Of a DNA stretch of 64,000 nucleotides, positions 6,047-41,703 are shown piece by piece. The position numbers and the translations under genes are program-made. The notes under the pieces were generated by a model. The model ran no database searches and was not told the origin of the DNA. It was given only the letters and a program-made list of their open reading frames with translations. The number at the start of each line of letters is the position of its first letter. The first letter of the stretch is position 1. Origin of the DNA: Escherichia coli (lineage in GTDB: Bacteria > Pseudomonadota > Gammaproteobacteria > Enterobacterales > Enterobacteriaceae); NCBI RefSeq assembly GCF_024223415.1, contig NZ_CP100500.1; one strand, 5' to 3'.

Positions 6047-6145
6047 GCCTGATGCGCTACGCTTATCAGGCCTACGAAAATCTTGCAATGTATTGAATTT
6101 TCATGATTTTGTAGGCCGGATAAGGCGTTCACGCCGCATCCGGCA
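6047..6145. repeat. REP/BIME-type palindromic element (two REP-like palindromes)
   Basis: gcctgatgcgctacgcttatcaggcctac and gtaggccggataaggcgttcacgccgcatccggca match the enterobacterial REP pattern. Confidence 0.7.
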
Positions 6146-16210: not shown

Positions 16211-16307
16211 CGTAGCCGATGAGGACGCGCCTGATGGGTGTTCTGGCTACCTGACCTGTCCATTGTGGAAGGTCTTACATTCTCGCTGATTTCAGGAGCT
16301 ATTGATT

Positions 16308-16721
16308 ATGCGTAACTTTGATTTATCCCCGCTTTACCGTTCTGCTATTGGATTTGACCGTTTGTTTAACCACTTAGAAAACAACCAGAGCCAGAGTAAT
16401 GGCGGCTACCCTCCGTATAACGTTGAACTGGTAGACGAAAACCATTACCGCATTGCTATCGCTGTGGCTGGTTTTGCTGAGAGCGAACTGGAAATTACCG
16501 CCCAGGATAATCTGCTGGTGGTGAAAGGTGCTCATGCCGACGAACAAAAAGAGCGCACCTATCTGTACCAGGGCATCGCTGAACGCAACTTTGAACGCAA
16601 ATTCCAGTTAGCTGAGAACATTCATGTTCGTGGTGCTAACCTGGTAAATGGTTTGCTGTATATCGATCTCGAACGCGTGATTCCGGAAGCGAAAAAACCG
16701 CGCCGTATCGAAATCAACTAA
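16308..16721 (+). CDS. ibpA: Small heat shock protein IbpA (137 aa)
   Basis: Alpha-crystallin-domain translation [21 protein letters not shown]...; paralog pair with ibpB. Confidence 0.95.
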
Positions 16722-20047: not shown

Positions 20048-23876
<3,829 letters not shown>

Positions 23877-29053: not shown

Positions 29054-30238
29054 TTAAACGGGCTGCCCCTGATGCGACATCCGCGTCGCCAGCGGCAGCC
29101 AGCACAGCACGATCAACAATCCCATTAAGGTCATCAATAACCCCAGGCTACCCTGACCGGTTTGCGGCAACATCGCAGAGAGCGACGCCAGCACGCCGGA
29201 ACCAATGTTTTGCAGACCGCCGACCAGCGCGCCAGCCGTGCCCGCCAGGAAGGGGAACGGCTCCATCGCGCCGCTGGTCGCCAGCGGAAACAGCATCCCG
29301 GCACCGAAAAAGAACAGCGCGGCGGGAACGAGCAGCGTCCAGACATTCATCACGCCAAACCAGTCGGGGATCCACATCAGCAAGCCAGCCAGCAGGCAGC
29401 AGATAACCGACTGCCACATTAACGTGGAGAAGCGTTTATTGGAACGTCCGGCAAACCATGCGCCAAAAAACGCTGCCGGAATCGGCAGAATAAACAAAAT
29501 ACTGACCGTCATACTGCTCAGCCCTAACACCGCGCCCATCAGCACGCCGGAGCAGGCTTCAAAGGCGGCAATCCCGGCCAGACCGCCAATCAGCATCAGC
29601 AAATAACAGTTAAAACCGCTGTTACCGAAAAGCGTTTTATAACTGGTAAGCAGGCGCGTGCGCGGTGCATCGACCGGACGCGTTTCCGGCATCCAGCGGG
29701 CCATACTGAAGGTCACACCAGCACAAAGAACCAACAAAAAGAGATAACAGGCGCGCCAGTTCCACATCGTATCCAGCAGACCGCCGATTAGCGGTGCGAG
29801 CAACGGACTGACGAGAATCCCCATGTTTAACAGGCTGTTAGCATGGCGCAACTGTGTCCGTTCATATAAATCTCGCGGTAAAGTACGCGCCATTACGCCG
29901 CCAACGCCGGTGCCCATCCCCTGCATCGCGCTGGCGGCAATCAACACCGTCAAACTGGAGGTCGTGACCGCGACCAGCGTTGCCAGCATAAAAATGGACA
30001 TTCCGACGAGGATCACCGGTCGGCGGCCCACGCGGTCGGAAATCGGGCCATAAAACAGCTGTGAGACACCGTAAGTCAGCAGATAAGCGCCCATTACGCT
30101 CTGCACCGCCCCTTCACGGACGTTGAGATCGCGCGCCATATCGGCAATAGCTGGAATATAAATGGTTTGCGCCATCTGACCGACGGCCACGAGTAATACC
30201 AACATCAATAACAAATTGACGTTTCTTTGCCTTTTCAT
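29054..30238 (-). CDS. emrD: Multidrug efflux MFS transporter EmrD (394 aa)
   Basis: 12-TM MFS translation from MKRQRNVNLLLMLVLLVAVGQMAQ... Confidence 0.9.
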   Translation of the reverse strand: MKRQRNVNLLLMLVLLVAVGQMAQTIYIPAIADMARDLNVREGAVQSVMGAYLLTYGVSQLFYGPISDRVGRRPVILVGMSIFMLATLVAVTTSSLTVLIAASAMQGMGTGVGGVMARTLPRDLYERTQLRHANSLLNMGILVSPLLAPLIGGLLDTMWNWRACYLFLLVLCAGVTFSMARWMPETRPVDAPRTRLLTSYKTLFGNSGFNCYLLMLIGGLAGIAAFEACSGVLMGAVLGLSSMTVSILFILPIPAAFFGAWFAGRSNKRFSTLMWQSVICCLLAGLLMWIPDWFGVMNVWTLLVPAALFFFGAGMLFPLATSGAMEPFPFLAGTAGALVGGLQNIGSGVLASLSAMLPQTGQGSLGLLMTLMGLLIVLCWLPLATRMSHQGQPV

Positions 30239-30415
30239 TATCACGGATGCTTTTATAAAAATAATTAGAATAAGTCACTACGTATTCCCATAAATGCGGG
30301 AGAGGAATCTATCACATTGATGAATGTTAGCCAGATATACGCCAGGAATGGGGAATTGTTTAGCGGCAGAATATGTAAACAAAAGCGGCAATAAATGTTG
30401 CCGGGAGAGATGGTA

Positions 30416-30451
30416 GGGCGGATAAGATGCGTCAGCATCGCATCCGACACC
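30416..30451. repeat. REP-like palindromic element
   Basis: gggcggataagatgcgtcagcatcgcatccgacacc resembles the REP consensus. Confidence 0.5.
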
Positions 30452-30473
30452 AACCCGCACGCTAAATATAAAA

Positions 30474-30497
30474 GGGGAGCGGTTTCCCGCTCCCCTT
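30474..30497 (-). terminator. Rho-independent terminator downstream of tisB
   Basis: ggggagcgg-tttc-ccgctcccc hairpin flanked by A-run (plus) and T-run (minus). Confidence 0.65.
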
Positions 30498-30517
30498 TGG
30501 TGCGACTTGAATCTGAA

Positions 30518-30607
30518 TTACTTCAGGTATTTCAGAACAGCATCAAGCAGTTGCAGTGCTGCAACAATGAGTTTGAGGATAAGAATGGCGATATCCACCA
30601 GGCTCAT
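30518..30607 (-). CDS. tisB: SOS-induced small toxic membrane peptide TisB (29 aa; not in the ORF track)
   Basis: Minus-strand translation MSLVDIAILILKLIVAALQLLDAVLKYLK*, the TisB peptide with one N-terminal substitution relative to my recollection of K-12. Confidence 0.9.
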   Translation of the reverse strand: MSLVDIAILILKLIVAALQLLDAVLKYLK

Positions 30608-30841
30608 ACGCGTCTCCTGTGGTTCAGGAGCACTGCCAGCTGACGTACCTTTCCGCTGCCTGTTGCCAGCTGTTGTGCACGCGGTATCTCAAGGAGAAAC
30701 GTTGTGCTTGTTGACATAACACAGTGTGCTCACGCGGGGTTAAGGCGCTGACGGCACCACCCGTTTCAGCCAGGACTTAGTGCGCCGGGTAACGATGCGG
30801 CCCCCGCATAACACATTGCGTACAGTGATATTATAGAAGTT

Positions 30842-30861
30842 TACTGTATAAATAAACAGTA
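30842..30861. promoter_or_regulatory. LexA operator (SOS box) of the tisAB/istR-2 locus
   Basis: TACTGTATAAATAAACAGTA fits the LexA consensus CTGT-N8-ACAG. Confidence 0.8.
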
Positions 30862-30967
30862 ATATTTGGACAAAACGCAAACTGTGATCGATACTCAACT
30901 ATGCACTAAATACGTCAAAATTCGTGCCGAAATTGCGCGTTCTGCGCGGAACACGTATACTTTCAGT

Positions 30968-31042
30968 GTTGACATAATACAGTGTGCTTTGCGGTTACCA
31001 GCCGCAGGCGACTGACGAAACCTCGCTCCGGCGGGGTTTTTT
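30968..31042 (+). ncRNA. istR: IstR-1 antitoxin sRNA (approximate ends; IstR-2 would start upstream, near 30.9 kb)
   Basis: TATACT -10-like hexamer at 30956-30961; the 5' region (30969-30994) is a near-repeat of 30711-30737, i.e. antisense to the tisAB leader about 105-130 nt upstream of the tisB start; T-run at about 31036-31042. Confidence 0.5.
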
Positions 31043-31171
31043 GTTATCTGCAATTCAGTACAAAACGTGATCAACCCCTCAATTTTCCCTTGCTGAAAAA
31101 TTTTCCATTGTCTCCCCTGTAAAGCTGTGCTTGTATAAATATTGTTAAACACAAAACCAACAAGGTCCCCA

Positions 31172-31270
31172 ATGACTACTTCCATGCTCAACGCAAAACT
31201 ACTACCAACTGCGCCATCCGCCGCAGTGGTCGTCGTGCGTGTGGTGGTGGTCGTCGGCAATGCGCCGTAG
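31172..31270 (+). CDS. ivbL: ilvB operon leader peptide (32 aa, Val/Leu-rich)
   Basis: Translation MTTSMLNAKLLPTAPSAAVVVVRVVVVVGNAP*; followed by an attenuator hairpin. Confidence 0.85.
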   Translation: MTTSMLNAKLLPTAPSAAVVVVRVVVVVGNAP

Positions 31271-31293
31271 GGACTGGAACAACACACGATTCC

Positions 31294-31330
31294 AAAACCC
31301 CGCCGGCGCAAACCGGGCGGGGTTTTTCGT
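31294..31330 (+). terminator. Transcription attenuator terminator of the ilvBN leader
   Basis: ccccgccggcgcaaaccgggcgggg hairpin followed by TTTTTCGTTT, directly downstream of ivbL. Confidence 0.75.
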
Positions 31331-31375: not shown

Positions 31376-33064
31376 ATGGCAAGTTCGGGCACAACATCGA
31401 CGCGTAAGCGCTTTACCGGCGCAGAATTTATCGTTCATTTCCTGGAACAGCAGGGCATTAAGATTGTGACAGGCATTCCGGGCGGTTCTATCCTGCCTGT
31501 TTACGATGCCTTAAGCCAAAGCACGCAAATCCGCCATATTCTGGCCCGTCATGAACAGGGCGCGGGCTTTATCGCTCAGGGAATGGCGCGCACCGACGGT
31601 AAACCGGCGGTCTGTATGGCCTGTAGCGGACCGGGTGCGACTAACCTGGTGACCGCCATTGCCGATGCGCGGCTGGACTCCATCCCGCTGATTTGCATCA
31701 CTGGTCAGGTTCCCGCCTCGATGATCGGCACCGACGCCTTCCAGGAAGTGGACACCTACGGCATCTCTATCCCCATCACCAAACACAACTATCTGGTCAG
31801 ACATATCGAAGAACTCCCGCAGGTCATGAGCGATGCCTTCCGCATTGCGCAATCAGGCCGCCCAGGCCCGGTGTGGATAGATATTCCTAAGGATGTGCAA
31901 ACGGCAGTTTTTGAGATTGAAACACAGCCCGCTATGGCAGAAAAAGCCGCCGCCCCCGCCTTTAGCGAAGAAAGCATTCGTGACGCAGCGGCGATGATTA
32001 ACGCTGCCAAACGCCCGGTGCTTTATCTGGGCGGCGGTGTGATCAATGCGCCCGCACGGGTGCGTGAACTGGCGGAGAAAGCGCAACTGCCTACCACCAT
32101 GACTTTAATGGCGCTGGGCATGTTGCCAAAAGCGCATCCGTTGTCGCTGGGTATGCTGGGGATGCACGGCGTGCGCAGCACCAACTATATTTTGCAGGAG
32201 GCGGATTTGTTGATAGTGCTCGGTGCGCGTTTTGATGACCGGGCGATTGGCAAAACCGAGCAGTTCTGTCCGAATGCCAAAATCATTCATGTCGATATCG
32301 ACCGTGCAGAGCTGGGTAAAATCAAGCAGCCGCACGTGGCGATTCAGGCGGATGTTGATGACGTGCTGGCGCAGTTGATCCCGCTGGTGGAAGCGCAACC
32401 GCGTGCAGAGTGGCACCAGTTGGTAGCGGATTTGCAGCGTGAGTTTCCGTGTCCAATCCCGAAAGCGTGCGATCCGTTAAGCCATTACGGCCTGATCAAC
32501 GCCGTTGCCGCCTGTGTCGATGACAATGCAATTATCACCACCGACGTTGGTCAGCATCAGATGTGGACCGCGCAAGCTTATCCGCTCAATCGCCCACGCC
32601 AGTGGCTGACCTCCGGTGGGCTGGGCACGATGGGTTTTGGCCTGCCTGCGGCGATTGGCGCTGCGCTGGCGAACCCGGATCGCAAAGTGTTGTGTTTCTC
32701 CGGCGACGGCAGCCTGATGATGAATATTCAGGAGATGGCGACCGCCAGTGAAAATCAGCTGGATGTCAAAATCATTCTGATGAACAACGAAGCGCTGGGG
32801 CTGGTGCATCAGCAACAGAGTCTGTTCTACGAGCAAGGCGTTTTTGCCGCCACCTATCCGGGCAAAATCAACTTTATGCAGATTGCCGCCGGATTCGGCC
32901 TCGAAACCTGTGATTTGAATAACGAAGCCGATCCGCAGGCTTCATTGCAGGAAATCATCAATCGCCCTGGCCCGGCGCTGATCCATGTGCGCATTGATGC
33001 CGAAGAAAAAGTTTACCCGATGGTGCCGCCAGGTGCGGCGAATACTGAAATGGTGGGGGAATAA
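31376..33064 (+). CDS. ilvB: Acetolactate synthase I large subunit (562 aa)
   Basis: ThDP-dependent enzyme translation; followed by the small regulatory subunit. Confidence 0.9.
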   Translation: MASSGTTSTRKRFTGAEFIVHFLEQQGIKIVTGIPGGSILPVYDALSQSTQIRHILARHEQGAGFIAQGMARTDGKPAVCMACSGPGATNLVTAIADARLDSIPLICITGQVPASMIGTDAFQEVDTYGISIPITKHNYLVRHIEELPQVMSDAFRIAQSGRPGPVWIDIPKDVQTAVFEIETQPAMAEKAAAPAFSEESIRDAAAMINAAKRPVLYLGGGVINAPARVRELAEKAQLPTTMTLMALGMLPKAHPLSLGMLGMHGVRSTNYILQEADLLIVLGARFDDRAIGKTEQFCPNAKIIHVDIDRAELGKIKQPHVAIQADVDDVLAQLIPLVEAQPRAEWHQLVADLQREFPCPIPKACDPLSHYGLINAVAACVDDNAIITTDVGQHQMWTAQAYPLNRPRQWLTSGGLGTMGFGLPAAIGAALANPDRKVLCFSGDGSLMMNIQEMATASENQLDVKIILMNNEALGLVHQQQSLFYEQGVFAATYPGKINFMQIAAGFGLETCDLNNEADPQASLQEIINRPGPALIHVRIDAEEKVYPMVPPGAANTEMVGE

Positions 33065-40368: not shown

Positions 40369-41703
40369 ATGAATAATGACAATACCGATTACGTGAGTAA
40401 TGAATCAGGGACGCTTTCGCGATTATTTAAACTACCTCAGCATGGGACCACCGTCCGCACAGAATTGATTGCGGGGATGACCACTTTTTTAACCATGGTG
40501 TACATCGTTTTTGTGAACCCGCAAATCCTCGGCGCGGCACAAATGGACCCGAAAGTGGTGTTTGTTACCACCTGTTTGATTGCCGGTATCGGCAGTATTG
40601 CGATGGGGATATTTGCTAACTTACCCGTGGCGCTGGCTCCGGCAATGGGGCTGAACGCCTTCTTTGCCTTCGTGGTCGTGGGGGCGATGGGCATCTCCTG
40701 GCAGACCGGGATGGGCGCAATATTCTGGGGCGCAGTTGGACTATTTTTGCTCACGCTGTTTCGTATCCGGTACTGGATGATCTCCAACATTCCCTTAAGT
40801 TTACGTATTGGTATCACCAGCGGAATTGGATTATTTATCGCCTTAATGGGATTAAAAAATACTGGCGTTATTGTCGCCAATAAAGACACGCTGGTGATGA
40901 TTGGCGATTTAAGTTCTCACGGCGTGTTGTTAGGTATTTTAGGGTTTTTTATTATAACCGTGTTGTCATCACGTCATTTTCATGCCGCGGTGCTGGTTTC
41001 TATTGTGGCGACGTCTTGCTGTGGATTATTTTTCGGTGATGTTCATTTTAGCGGCGTCTATTCCATTCCGCCTGATATTAGCGGCGTCATTGGTGAAGTA
41101 GATTTGAGCGGCGCGTTAACACTTGAACTCGCCGGTATCATTTTCTCCTTTATGCTGATCAACCTATTTGATTCATCAGGAACATTAATTGGTGTAACTG
41201 ATAAAGCGGGCTTAATAGATGGTAACGGTAAATTCCCCAATATGAATAAGGCGCTGTATGTTGATAGCGTCAGTTCGGTGGCGGGTGCGTTTATCGGCAC
41301 CTCGTCTGTTACTGCCTATATTGAAAGTACTTCTGGTGTGGCAGTCGGTGGCCGCACGGGGCTGACTGCGGTTGTGGTTGGCGTTATGTTCCTGTTGGTT
41401 ATGTTCTTCTCACCGCTGGTGGCGATGGTTCCTCCTTACGCAACCGCCGGAGCGTTAATCTTTGTTGGCGTGCTGATGACTTCGAGCCTGGCGCGCGTTA
41501 ACTGGGATGATTTTACCGAATCGGTGCCTGCGTTTATTACCACGGTGATGATGCCCTTTACTTTCTCGATCACCGAAGGGATTGCACTCGGCTTTATGTC
41601 GTACTGCATCATGAAAGTGTGCACCGGGCGCTGGCGCGATCTGAACCTGTGTGTGGTGGTGGTCGCAGCTCTGTTTGCACTGAAGATTATTCTGGTGGAT
41701 TAG
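40369..41703 (+). CDS. adeQ: Purine (adenine) permease, NCS2/AzgA-like (444 aa)
   Basis: Multi-TM NCS2-type translation; divergent from ade. Confidence 0.85.
   Translation: MNNDNTDYVSNESGTLSRLFKLPQHGTTVRTELIAGMTTFLTMVYIVFVNPQILGAAQMDPKVVFVTTCLIAGIGSIAMGIFANLPVALAPAMGLNAFFAFVVVGAMGISWQTGMGAIFWGAVGLFLLTLFRIRYWMISNIPLSLRIGITSGIGLFIALMGLKNTGVIVANKDTLVMIGDLSSHGVLLGILGFFIITVLSSRHFHAAVLVSIVATSCCGLFFGDVHFSGVYSIPPDISGVIGEVDLSGALTLELAGIIFSFMLINLFDSSGTLIGVTDKAGLIDGNGKFPNMNKALYVDSVSSVAGAFIGTSSVTAYIESTSGVAVGGRTGLTAVVVGVMFLLVMFFSPLVAMVPPYATAGALIFVGVLMTSSLARVNWDDFTESVPAFITTVMMPFTFSITEGIALGFMSYCIMKVCTGRWRDLNLCVVVVAALFALKIILVD

Follow-up and report, generated by a model that had tools for sequence, protein, structure and literature searches.

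The 64,000-nucleotide (nt) stretch of Escherichia coli DNA analyzed here (contig NZ_CP100500.1 of assembly GCF_024223415.1, hereafter the window) carries near its middle a locus that is almost certainly the chromosomal tisB/istR-1 type I toxin-antitoxin module of E. coli at its usual site, and nothing found there contradicts this identification. On the minus strand lies the gene of a small membrane toxin, TisB, preceded in the same transcript (tisAB) by a short upstream reading frame, tisA. On the plus strand lies istR, which gives the antitoxin small RNA (sRNA) IstR-1 and a longer form, IstR-2. The tisB/istR locus is already known, and nothing in the module itself is new. Its identity with the K-12 locus, the toxin and sRNA family assignments, the complementarity between the two RNAs, the LexA box, the promoters, the terminators and the conservation across genera are all observed directly in the DNA (Table 1).

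When positions 30450-31110 of the window are aligned with the tisB-istR region of E. coli K-12 MG1655, 660 of the 661 bases are identical, and both features, tisAB and istR, are in place. This is what an initial annotation, made by reading the sequence alone, had led us to expect. The sole difference is at window position 30603, a C here and a T in K-12, and it changes the second residue of TisB from asparagine to serine (N2S). N2S is the dominant natural TisB variant, found in about 85% of E. coli tis/istR loci, with the Asn2 of K-12 in the minority; the N2S toxin is toxic, and somewhat more so at low induction (PMC11264685). A megablast search against complete E. coli genomes returned a 651-bp region at 100% identity in many strains, with tisB annotated, and all of these matches are chromosomal. 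The gene order is also that of K-12, emrD-ysdE-tisB-istR-ivbL-ilvB, which confirms the position between emrD and ivbL-ilvBN.

Both partners of the module are recognized by their own family models. Open reading frames (ORFs) of 29 residues fall below the usual ORF-length cutoffs. The 29-codon tisB gene that the initial annotation had proposed on the minus strand is nevertheless present when 30300-31300 is read on both strands, and its product passes the NCBIfam equivalog models NF011340 (69.9 bits, cutoff 53) and TIGR04459 (61.5 bits, cutoff 38) over the full length of 1-29, as well as the Pfam model PF13939 (TisB_toxin; 37.6 bits, cutoff 25). On the other strand, the Rfam family istR (RF01400) matches positions 30913-31042 (plus) with 150.1 bits against a gathering score of 45, along the entire model (1-130 of 130), and the same match was recovered again in a whole-window Rfam scan. 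Weak sub-threshold Rfam matches nearby (P6, STnc310, RsmY, BSnc120 and RRE) were rejected as terminator-like hairpins. The IstR-1 annotated in K-12 has 73 nt and maps to 30970-31042, while the annotated IstR-2 maps to 30903-31042. We place the start of IstR-1 at 30968, which gives a length of 75 nt, because of the position of the TATACT -10 hexamer at 30956-30961 and because of the 21-nt complementarity between IstR-1 and tisAB stated in the literature (PMC4147584).

The element joining the two genes is a direct repeat. A repeat search finds positions 30709-30730 and 30967-30988 to be identical on the same strand in 21 of 22 nt. The initial annotation had described a near-repeat of about 26 nt (30711-30737 versus 30969-30994). 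The repeat is real and lies on the same strand, but its true core is 22 nt long and starts 2 nt earlier; the outer 6-7 nt match only with an indel and are not conserved, and the conserved duplex is 21 bp. The 3' extension that had been included (30731-30737) varies between genera, and on the IstR side it is part of the first hairpin. In E. coli this extension can pair, the predicted duplex joining IstR-1 nucleotides 1-27 with one bulge. Since the genes are divergent and the DNA repeat is direct, the two RNAs are complementary. Nucleotides 1-21 of IstR-1 (30968-30988) pair with nucleotides +94 to +114 of the tisAB mRNA (30730 to 30710). The 21 pairs are contiguous, since the one position that differs in the DNA (T at 30978, C at 30720) forms a U•G wobble in the RNA duplex. 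In the predicted fold of IstR-1, nucleotides 1-12 are unpaired and are followed by two hairpins. The copies thus map to the 5' end of IstR-1 and to the tisAB leader, in agreement with the earlier proposal that an sRNA pairs with the toxin mRNA leader about 100 nt upstream of the start codon.

The local duplex predicted between the two copies has 21 bp and an energy of -45.2 kcal/mol. As a background, the first 30 nt of IstR-1 were paired with every 60-nt tile on both strands of the window, which gave -15.2 +/- 3.3 kcal/mol. The tisAB site lies about 9 standard deviations lower, and apart from the antisense strand of istR itself, no site in the window gives a better duplex. The 22-mer itself has no other site with up to 5 mismatches in the whole window, on either strand. 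A duplex between full-length IstR-1 and the full tisAB mRNA (70 nt, -78 kcal/mol) was discarded, as it is over-extended and ignores intramolecular structure, and shuffled sequences reached -71 kcal/mol. A second same-strand similarity is seen between 30728-30741 (GCTCACGCGGGGTT) and 31025-31038 (GCTCCGGCGGGGTT), with 12 of 14 positions identical; one copy directly follows the target and the other sits in the 3' arm of the IstR terminator. Considered as the trace of an ancient leader duplication, it was set aside as probably due to chance, being G-rich and weaker by eye in other species.

To follow the conservation of the module, a degenerate DNA pattern for IstR, open at the less conserved positions, was run against a single genome from each species. 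Fourteen loci were recovered, that of the E. coli species representative and 13 others. The recovered loci include those of Salmonella enterica subsp. arizonae and subsp. diarizonae, of seven Citrobacter, of Franconibacter, Siccibacter and Pseudenterobacter, and of two other Enterobacteriaceae. An unconstrained search of the upstream region found the target copy in all 13 loci whose upstream sequence is readable (12 besides E. coli), with 20/21 or 21/21 identity and at 248-259 nt from IstR; C. amalonaticus was left out of this count because it has too little upstream sequence. TisB can be read in 12 loci (11 besides E. coli), where 18-29 of the 29 residues are identical to those of the window. 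Both repeat copies are kept across at least six genera while the adjacent sequence and the toxin gene diverge. The alignment also shows conservation of tisB, the hairpin around its Shine-Dalgarno (SD) sequence, the target, a leader block at 30737-30779, the LexA box, the three promoters and the IstR terminator. Across the loci, 98% of the duplex cells are standard pairs. One position is compensatory, with A-U changed to G-C at IstR nucleotide 7, and two positions change from C-G to U•G.

The tisAB leader can be numbered precisely. The transcription start (+1) is placed at 30823 because C50, C51, G54, C55 and G57 then fit the residues mutated in an earlier study (PMC7708055). No other numbering fits, and a start one base to either side is already incompatible with these residues. 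Counted from there, the target occupies +94 to +114, the tisB AUG is at +217, which is 103 nt past the 3' edge of the target, and the +42 processing site is at 30782. The published RNase III (ribonuclease III) product beginning at +106 (PMC6690012) maps to 30718, inside the duplex. The structural elements described for the standby site comprise positions 50-64, 53-57 and 73-77 (PMC7708055). The 5' end of the +1 mRNA holds the third, partial repeat copy (+6 to +17). In the minimum-free-energy fold of this mRNA, +3 to +13 pair with +94 to +105 and so mask part of the standby site; the +42 form is without nucleotides +3 to +13, and therefore this masking pair cannot form. In the predicted folds of all mRNA forms, the SD and the AUG of tisB are paired. 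The SD is predicted in a local hairpin with an upstream CUCCUG (partners +194 to +198), its unpaired probability being about 0.16, and the arms of this hairpin vary among species yet remain complementary. The predicted folds agree qualitatively with the published inactivity of the unprocessed mRNA (PMC6690012).

Nothing contradicts this reading of the locus, but it has several limits. The search pattern fixed 10 of the 21 IstR positions and left the target side unconstrained, and the conservation on the IstR side is therefore partly by construction. In six loci the duplex contains a single non-standard pair, which is A·C in five of them and C·A in the sixth. The covariation is not significant, as 55 of 500 shuffles reach the observed score, and the comparative support therefore rests on conservation and not on compensatory change. 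Lastly, the accessibility of the target computed from the partition function, which is not decisive, rises only modestly between the +1 form (0.39) and the +42 form (0.47); the pairing partners in the minimum-free-energy folds tell more. The lack of significant covariation, together with the fact that short two-copy repeats belong to a class often due to chance, is what speaks for a chance similarity or the leftover of a local duplication, without any RNA-RNA function. This explanation has a negligible probability given the uniqueness of the 22-mer over 64 kb on either strand, a duplex energy far below the window background, and the fact that in six or more genera both copies keep an identity of no less than 20/21, although their surroundings and the toxin diverge. 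It also runs against the identity with K-12, in which experiments have demonstrated the pairing, the block of translation and the cleavage by RNase III (PMC4147584, PMC6690012).

The initial annotation had further placed a LexA operator between the two repeat copies, and this stands to the exact coordinate. The predicted operator is an exact match to TACTGT-N8-ACAGTA and is the only one in the window; when 2 mismatches are allowed, the only other match is at 41310. This 2-mismatch count is not unusual (chance predicts 0.86, and at least 2 occur in 19 of 100 shuffles), so the weight of the box rests on its exact match and its position. In the tisAB promoter it extends over the -35 region and into the spacer, and its end lies 5 nt ahead of the -35 hexamer of IstR-2. 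LexA control of both tisAB and IstR-2 has been described (PMC4147584, PMC11264685). The exact CTGT-N8-ACAG core is found in 13 of the 14 recovered loci (12 of 13 besides E. coli), the exception being Enterobacteriaceae RIT714, with CTGG for CTGT in the left half-site. The boxes of C. amalonaticus and Citrobacter 18056 end in ACAGGT, not ACAGTA. In these three species, LexA control of tisAB may be weaker as a result.

The promoter hexamers of IstR-1 and IstR-2 and the tisAB -10 are identical to those given for MG1655 in Table 1 of a recent study (PMC11264685), and the IstR-1 hexamers are conserved across genera in the multiple alignment. The genes tisB (minus) and istR (plus) are divergent and do not overlap, with inferred starts at 30823 for tisAB, 30903 for IstR-2 and 30968 for IstR-1. 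The tisAB and IstR-1 starts are 145 bp apart, a layout found in the K-12 annotation as well. A perfect TTGACA is present in both repeat copies, which could mean that the repeat acts at the DNA level, as duplicated -35 hexamers or as paired protein-binding sites. However, neither copy is followed at a suitable distance by an acceptable -10 in the promoter scan, the downstream TTGACA is inside the IstR-1 transcript (+2 to +7), and the mapped promoters lie elsewhere and match the published hexamers (PMC11264685). Such a DNA-level role is hardly credible, and we retain RNA pairing as the function of the repeat.

As for which sRNA does the pairing, IstR-2 holds the same 21-nt segment, mostly unpaired in its predicted fold, and it is co-regulated with tisAB through the shared LexA box (PMC11264685). 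It might thus be the effective antitoxin in place of IstR-1, or both forms might be equally effective. This is very unlikely, although a little less so than the two explanations weighed above. IstR-2 is said not to repress translation (PMC11264685), and the inhibition experiments in vitro and in vivo used IstR-1 (PMC4147584, PMC6690012). In addition, an antitoxin induced alongside its toxin cannot set a threshold against leaky expression. IstR-1 remains by far the better candidate.

A model of the module can be proposed from the experiments made in K-12 (PMC4147584, PMC6690012, PMC7708055, PMC11264685). For the strain studied here, we infer transcription, processing, ribosome standby, RNase III cleavage, toxicity and persistence from the identity with K-12. 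LexA bound to its operator would repress both the leftward tisAB promoter and the rightward IstR-2 promoter, while IstR-1 would be made constitutively from its own promoter. After DNA damage, LexA would be cleaved and the tisAB mRNA made. The primary transcript would be inactive for two reasons: its 5' end is paired to the standby region, and the ribosome-binding site of tisB is enclosed in structure. Once its first 41 nt are removed, the active +42 mRNA would result, and there the standby site, with the adjacent 5' pseudoknot, would give 30S subunits and protein S1 a place to load, about 100 nt upstream. The loaded subunits would then slide to the sequestered ribosome-binding site of tisB. 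The binding of IstR-1 nucleotides 1-21 to the standby site would block this loading and trigger RNase III cleavage, leaving the inert +106 RNA. Once the tisAB mRNA is in excess of the IstR-1 pool, the 29-residue TisB would enter the inner membrane, depolarize it, and promote dormancy and persistence.

The upstream frame tisA has no match in Pfam or NCBIfam family searches. Its ATG (30715-30717, minus) lies within the IstR-1 target and is an ACG in 8 of the 14 loci; where the ATG is present in other loci, the length and frame of the ORF vary. Within E. coli, tisA is more than 99% conserved, and there is no experimental evidence for its translation (PMC11264685). With a start codon that is not conserved across genera, tisA is probably not a real coding gene. 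The loss of its ATG in most genera suggests that it is a by-product of the target segment. The tisAB terminator, on the other end of the transcript, is kept in other species, and compensatory stem changes are visible in the alignment.

Two features of the locus vary. A leader segment of about 33 nt, lying between the target and the ribosome-binding site of tisB, is found in E. coli, S. diarizonae and Citrobacter Awk4 and NCU1 and is absent from 8 species; therefore, the distance from target to AUG is 102-104 nt in the former and 67-72 nt in the latter. On the mRNA strand, this segment carries a CUCCUU motif resembling an anti-SD. The standby architecture may thus be more plastic than in the K-12 model, with a standby site that works about 70 nt ahead of the AUG in some species and about 103 nt ahead of it in others. 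The second variable is the presence of the module. Among 5426 complete E. coli genomes, 4358 match it and 1068 (about 20%) give no match even in sensitive mode, while the emrD and ilvB flanks are present in 5424. In a published survey, 15% of strains were without a module match (PMC11264685). In strain EcN, about 150 nt of unrelated sequence stand in place of the window interval from 30405 to about 31095 (about 690 bp, including a repetitive extragenic palindromic (REP) element). The REP palindrome is just inside the left boundary of this indel. Within E. coli, the whole unit of about 690 bp, REP element included, is present or absent in the manner of a cassette. A joint evolutionary reading would combine a plastic standby architecture, tisA as a by-product and the presence/absence cassette; we offer it tentatively, and consider it rather improbable as a whole. 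One could also speculate that istR-1 originated by direct duplication of the standby segment of the leader.

Table 1. Features of the tisB/istR locus and its surroundings, in window coordinates.
Feature	Position	Strand	Basis and remarks
emrD	29054-30244	minus	Flanking gene
ysdE, small protein gene between emrD and tisB	30320-30394	plus	RefSeq genome annotation
REP-type palindrome after ysdE	30417-30449		Sub-threshold Rfam naRNA4 match, 22 bits
tisAB intrinsic terminator	30471-30498	minus	12-bp GC-rich stem, 4-nt loop, T run; inverted repeat and terminator prediction
tisB, 29-codon ORF	30518-30607	minus	MSLVDIAILILKLIVAALQLLDAVLKYLK; membrane toxin, N2S variant; small-ORF listing, family models, RefSeq annotation
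tisA, 37-codon upstream ORF	30604-30717	minus	4-nt overlap with tisB; small-ORF listing
tisB Shine-Dalgarno, AGGAGA	30618-30613	minus	Read from sequence; same as the MG1655 SD in PMC11264685, Table 1
Leader segment of ~33 nt, variable among species	30675-30707	minus	Species alignment
Upstream repeat copy: IstR-1 target and single-stranded ribosome standby site	30709-30730	minus	Repeat search; mechanism PMC6690012, PMC4147584
Nearly invariant leader block (+45 to +87)	30737-30779	minus	13-species alignment; 5' stem-loop/pseudoknot element of the standby site
Third, partial repeat copy (+6 to +17 of the primary transcript)	30807-30818	minus	CATAACACATTG; 12 nt, 11/12 identical; repeat search
tisAB transcription start (+1)	30823	minus	Placed by published nucleotide identities
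tisAB promoter -10, TATAAT	30835-30830	minus	Read from sequence
LexA operator (predicted)	30842-30861		TACTGTATAAATAAACAGTA; exact TACTGT-N8-ACAGTA; pattern scan
IstR-2 promoter	30867-30895	plus	-35 TGGACA 30867-30872, 17-nt spacer, -10 GATACT 30890-30895; promoter scan
IstR-2, 140-nt LexA-controlled long form	30903-31042	plus	K-12 annotation mapped by alignment
IstR-1 promoter	30933-30961	plus	-35 TTGCGC 30933-30938, 17-nt spacer, -10 TATACT 30956-30961; read from sequence
IstR-1, 75-nt antitoxin sRNA	30968-31042	plus	Rfam, K-12 annotation, -10 position, published complementarity
IstR intrinsic terminator	31017-31040	plus	Terminator prediction and Rfam
ivbL	31172-31270	plus	Flanking gene
ilvB	31376-33064	plus	Flanking gene

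The wider setting can be read from a second chromosome, NZ_CP195498.1, in which tisB-istR likewise occupies 30518-31042; it follows that the window represents the first, dnaA-proximal part of an E. coli chromosome. In NZ_CP195498.1, a gene for a phosphotransferase system (PTS) sugar transporter IIB at 20048-21664 is annotated as a pseudogene with an internal stop, and the window coordinates would be the same if the two are collinear. The other Rfam matches above the gathering score in the window are AsdA, the antisense RNA of dnaA (511-591, minus), the ES036/CssrF sRNA (6068-6110, minus), the ROSE_2 RNA thermometer (16242-16314, plus) and the IS102 RNA (63398-63634, minus).

TisB/IstR-1 serves as the model system for two subjects, the SOS-induced formation of persisters and the control of translation by ribosome standby. 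Its intact presence here tells no more about this strain than that it has the standard module, with N2S, the common variant of the toxin. As for the initial annotation, it shows that reading the raw sequence can lead to the correct recognition of a toxin gene of 29 codons, a trans-antisense repeat and a LexA box. The variable standby distance and the non-conserved tisA may be of mild specialist interest, and parts of this are probably already known.

Several known systems resemble this one. In shoB/ohsC, zorO/orzO and dinQ/agrB, as here, a small hydrophobic toxin is paired with a divergent, non-overlapping sRNA, the complementarity of about 19-23 nt lies far upstream of the ribosome-binding site, and the 5' untranslated region is long and processed; dinQ is also controlled by LexA, as is tisAB (PMC4147584). 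These are, however, unrelated toxin and sRNA families, and the window matches the TisB and istR models specifically. The hok/sok system shares an antisense RNA directed against a membrane toxin, a primary mRNA that is inactive until processed, and cleavage of the duplex by RNase III. Its two genes overlap in cis, whereas those of the present locus do not, and Sok blocks a coupled leader ORF, mok. In tisB/istR, by contrast, the sRNA acts by blocking the standby site for ribosomes, and tisA, the upstream ORF here, is not a conserved one. The closest system remains the K-12 MG1655 tisB/istR-1 locus itself (b4618/b4616), reportedly described by Vogel and colleagues in 2004 and by Darfeuille and colleagues in 2007. 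It has the same LexA box, the same three promoters, both terminators, and the same 21-nt complementarity at the same position, and it differs from the window by a single base (30603), which makes residue 2 of TisB a serine here and not an asparagine.

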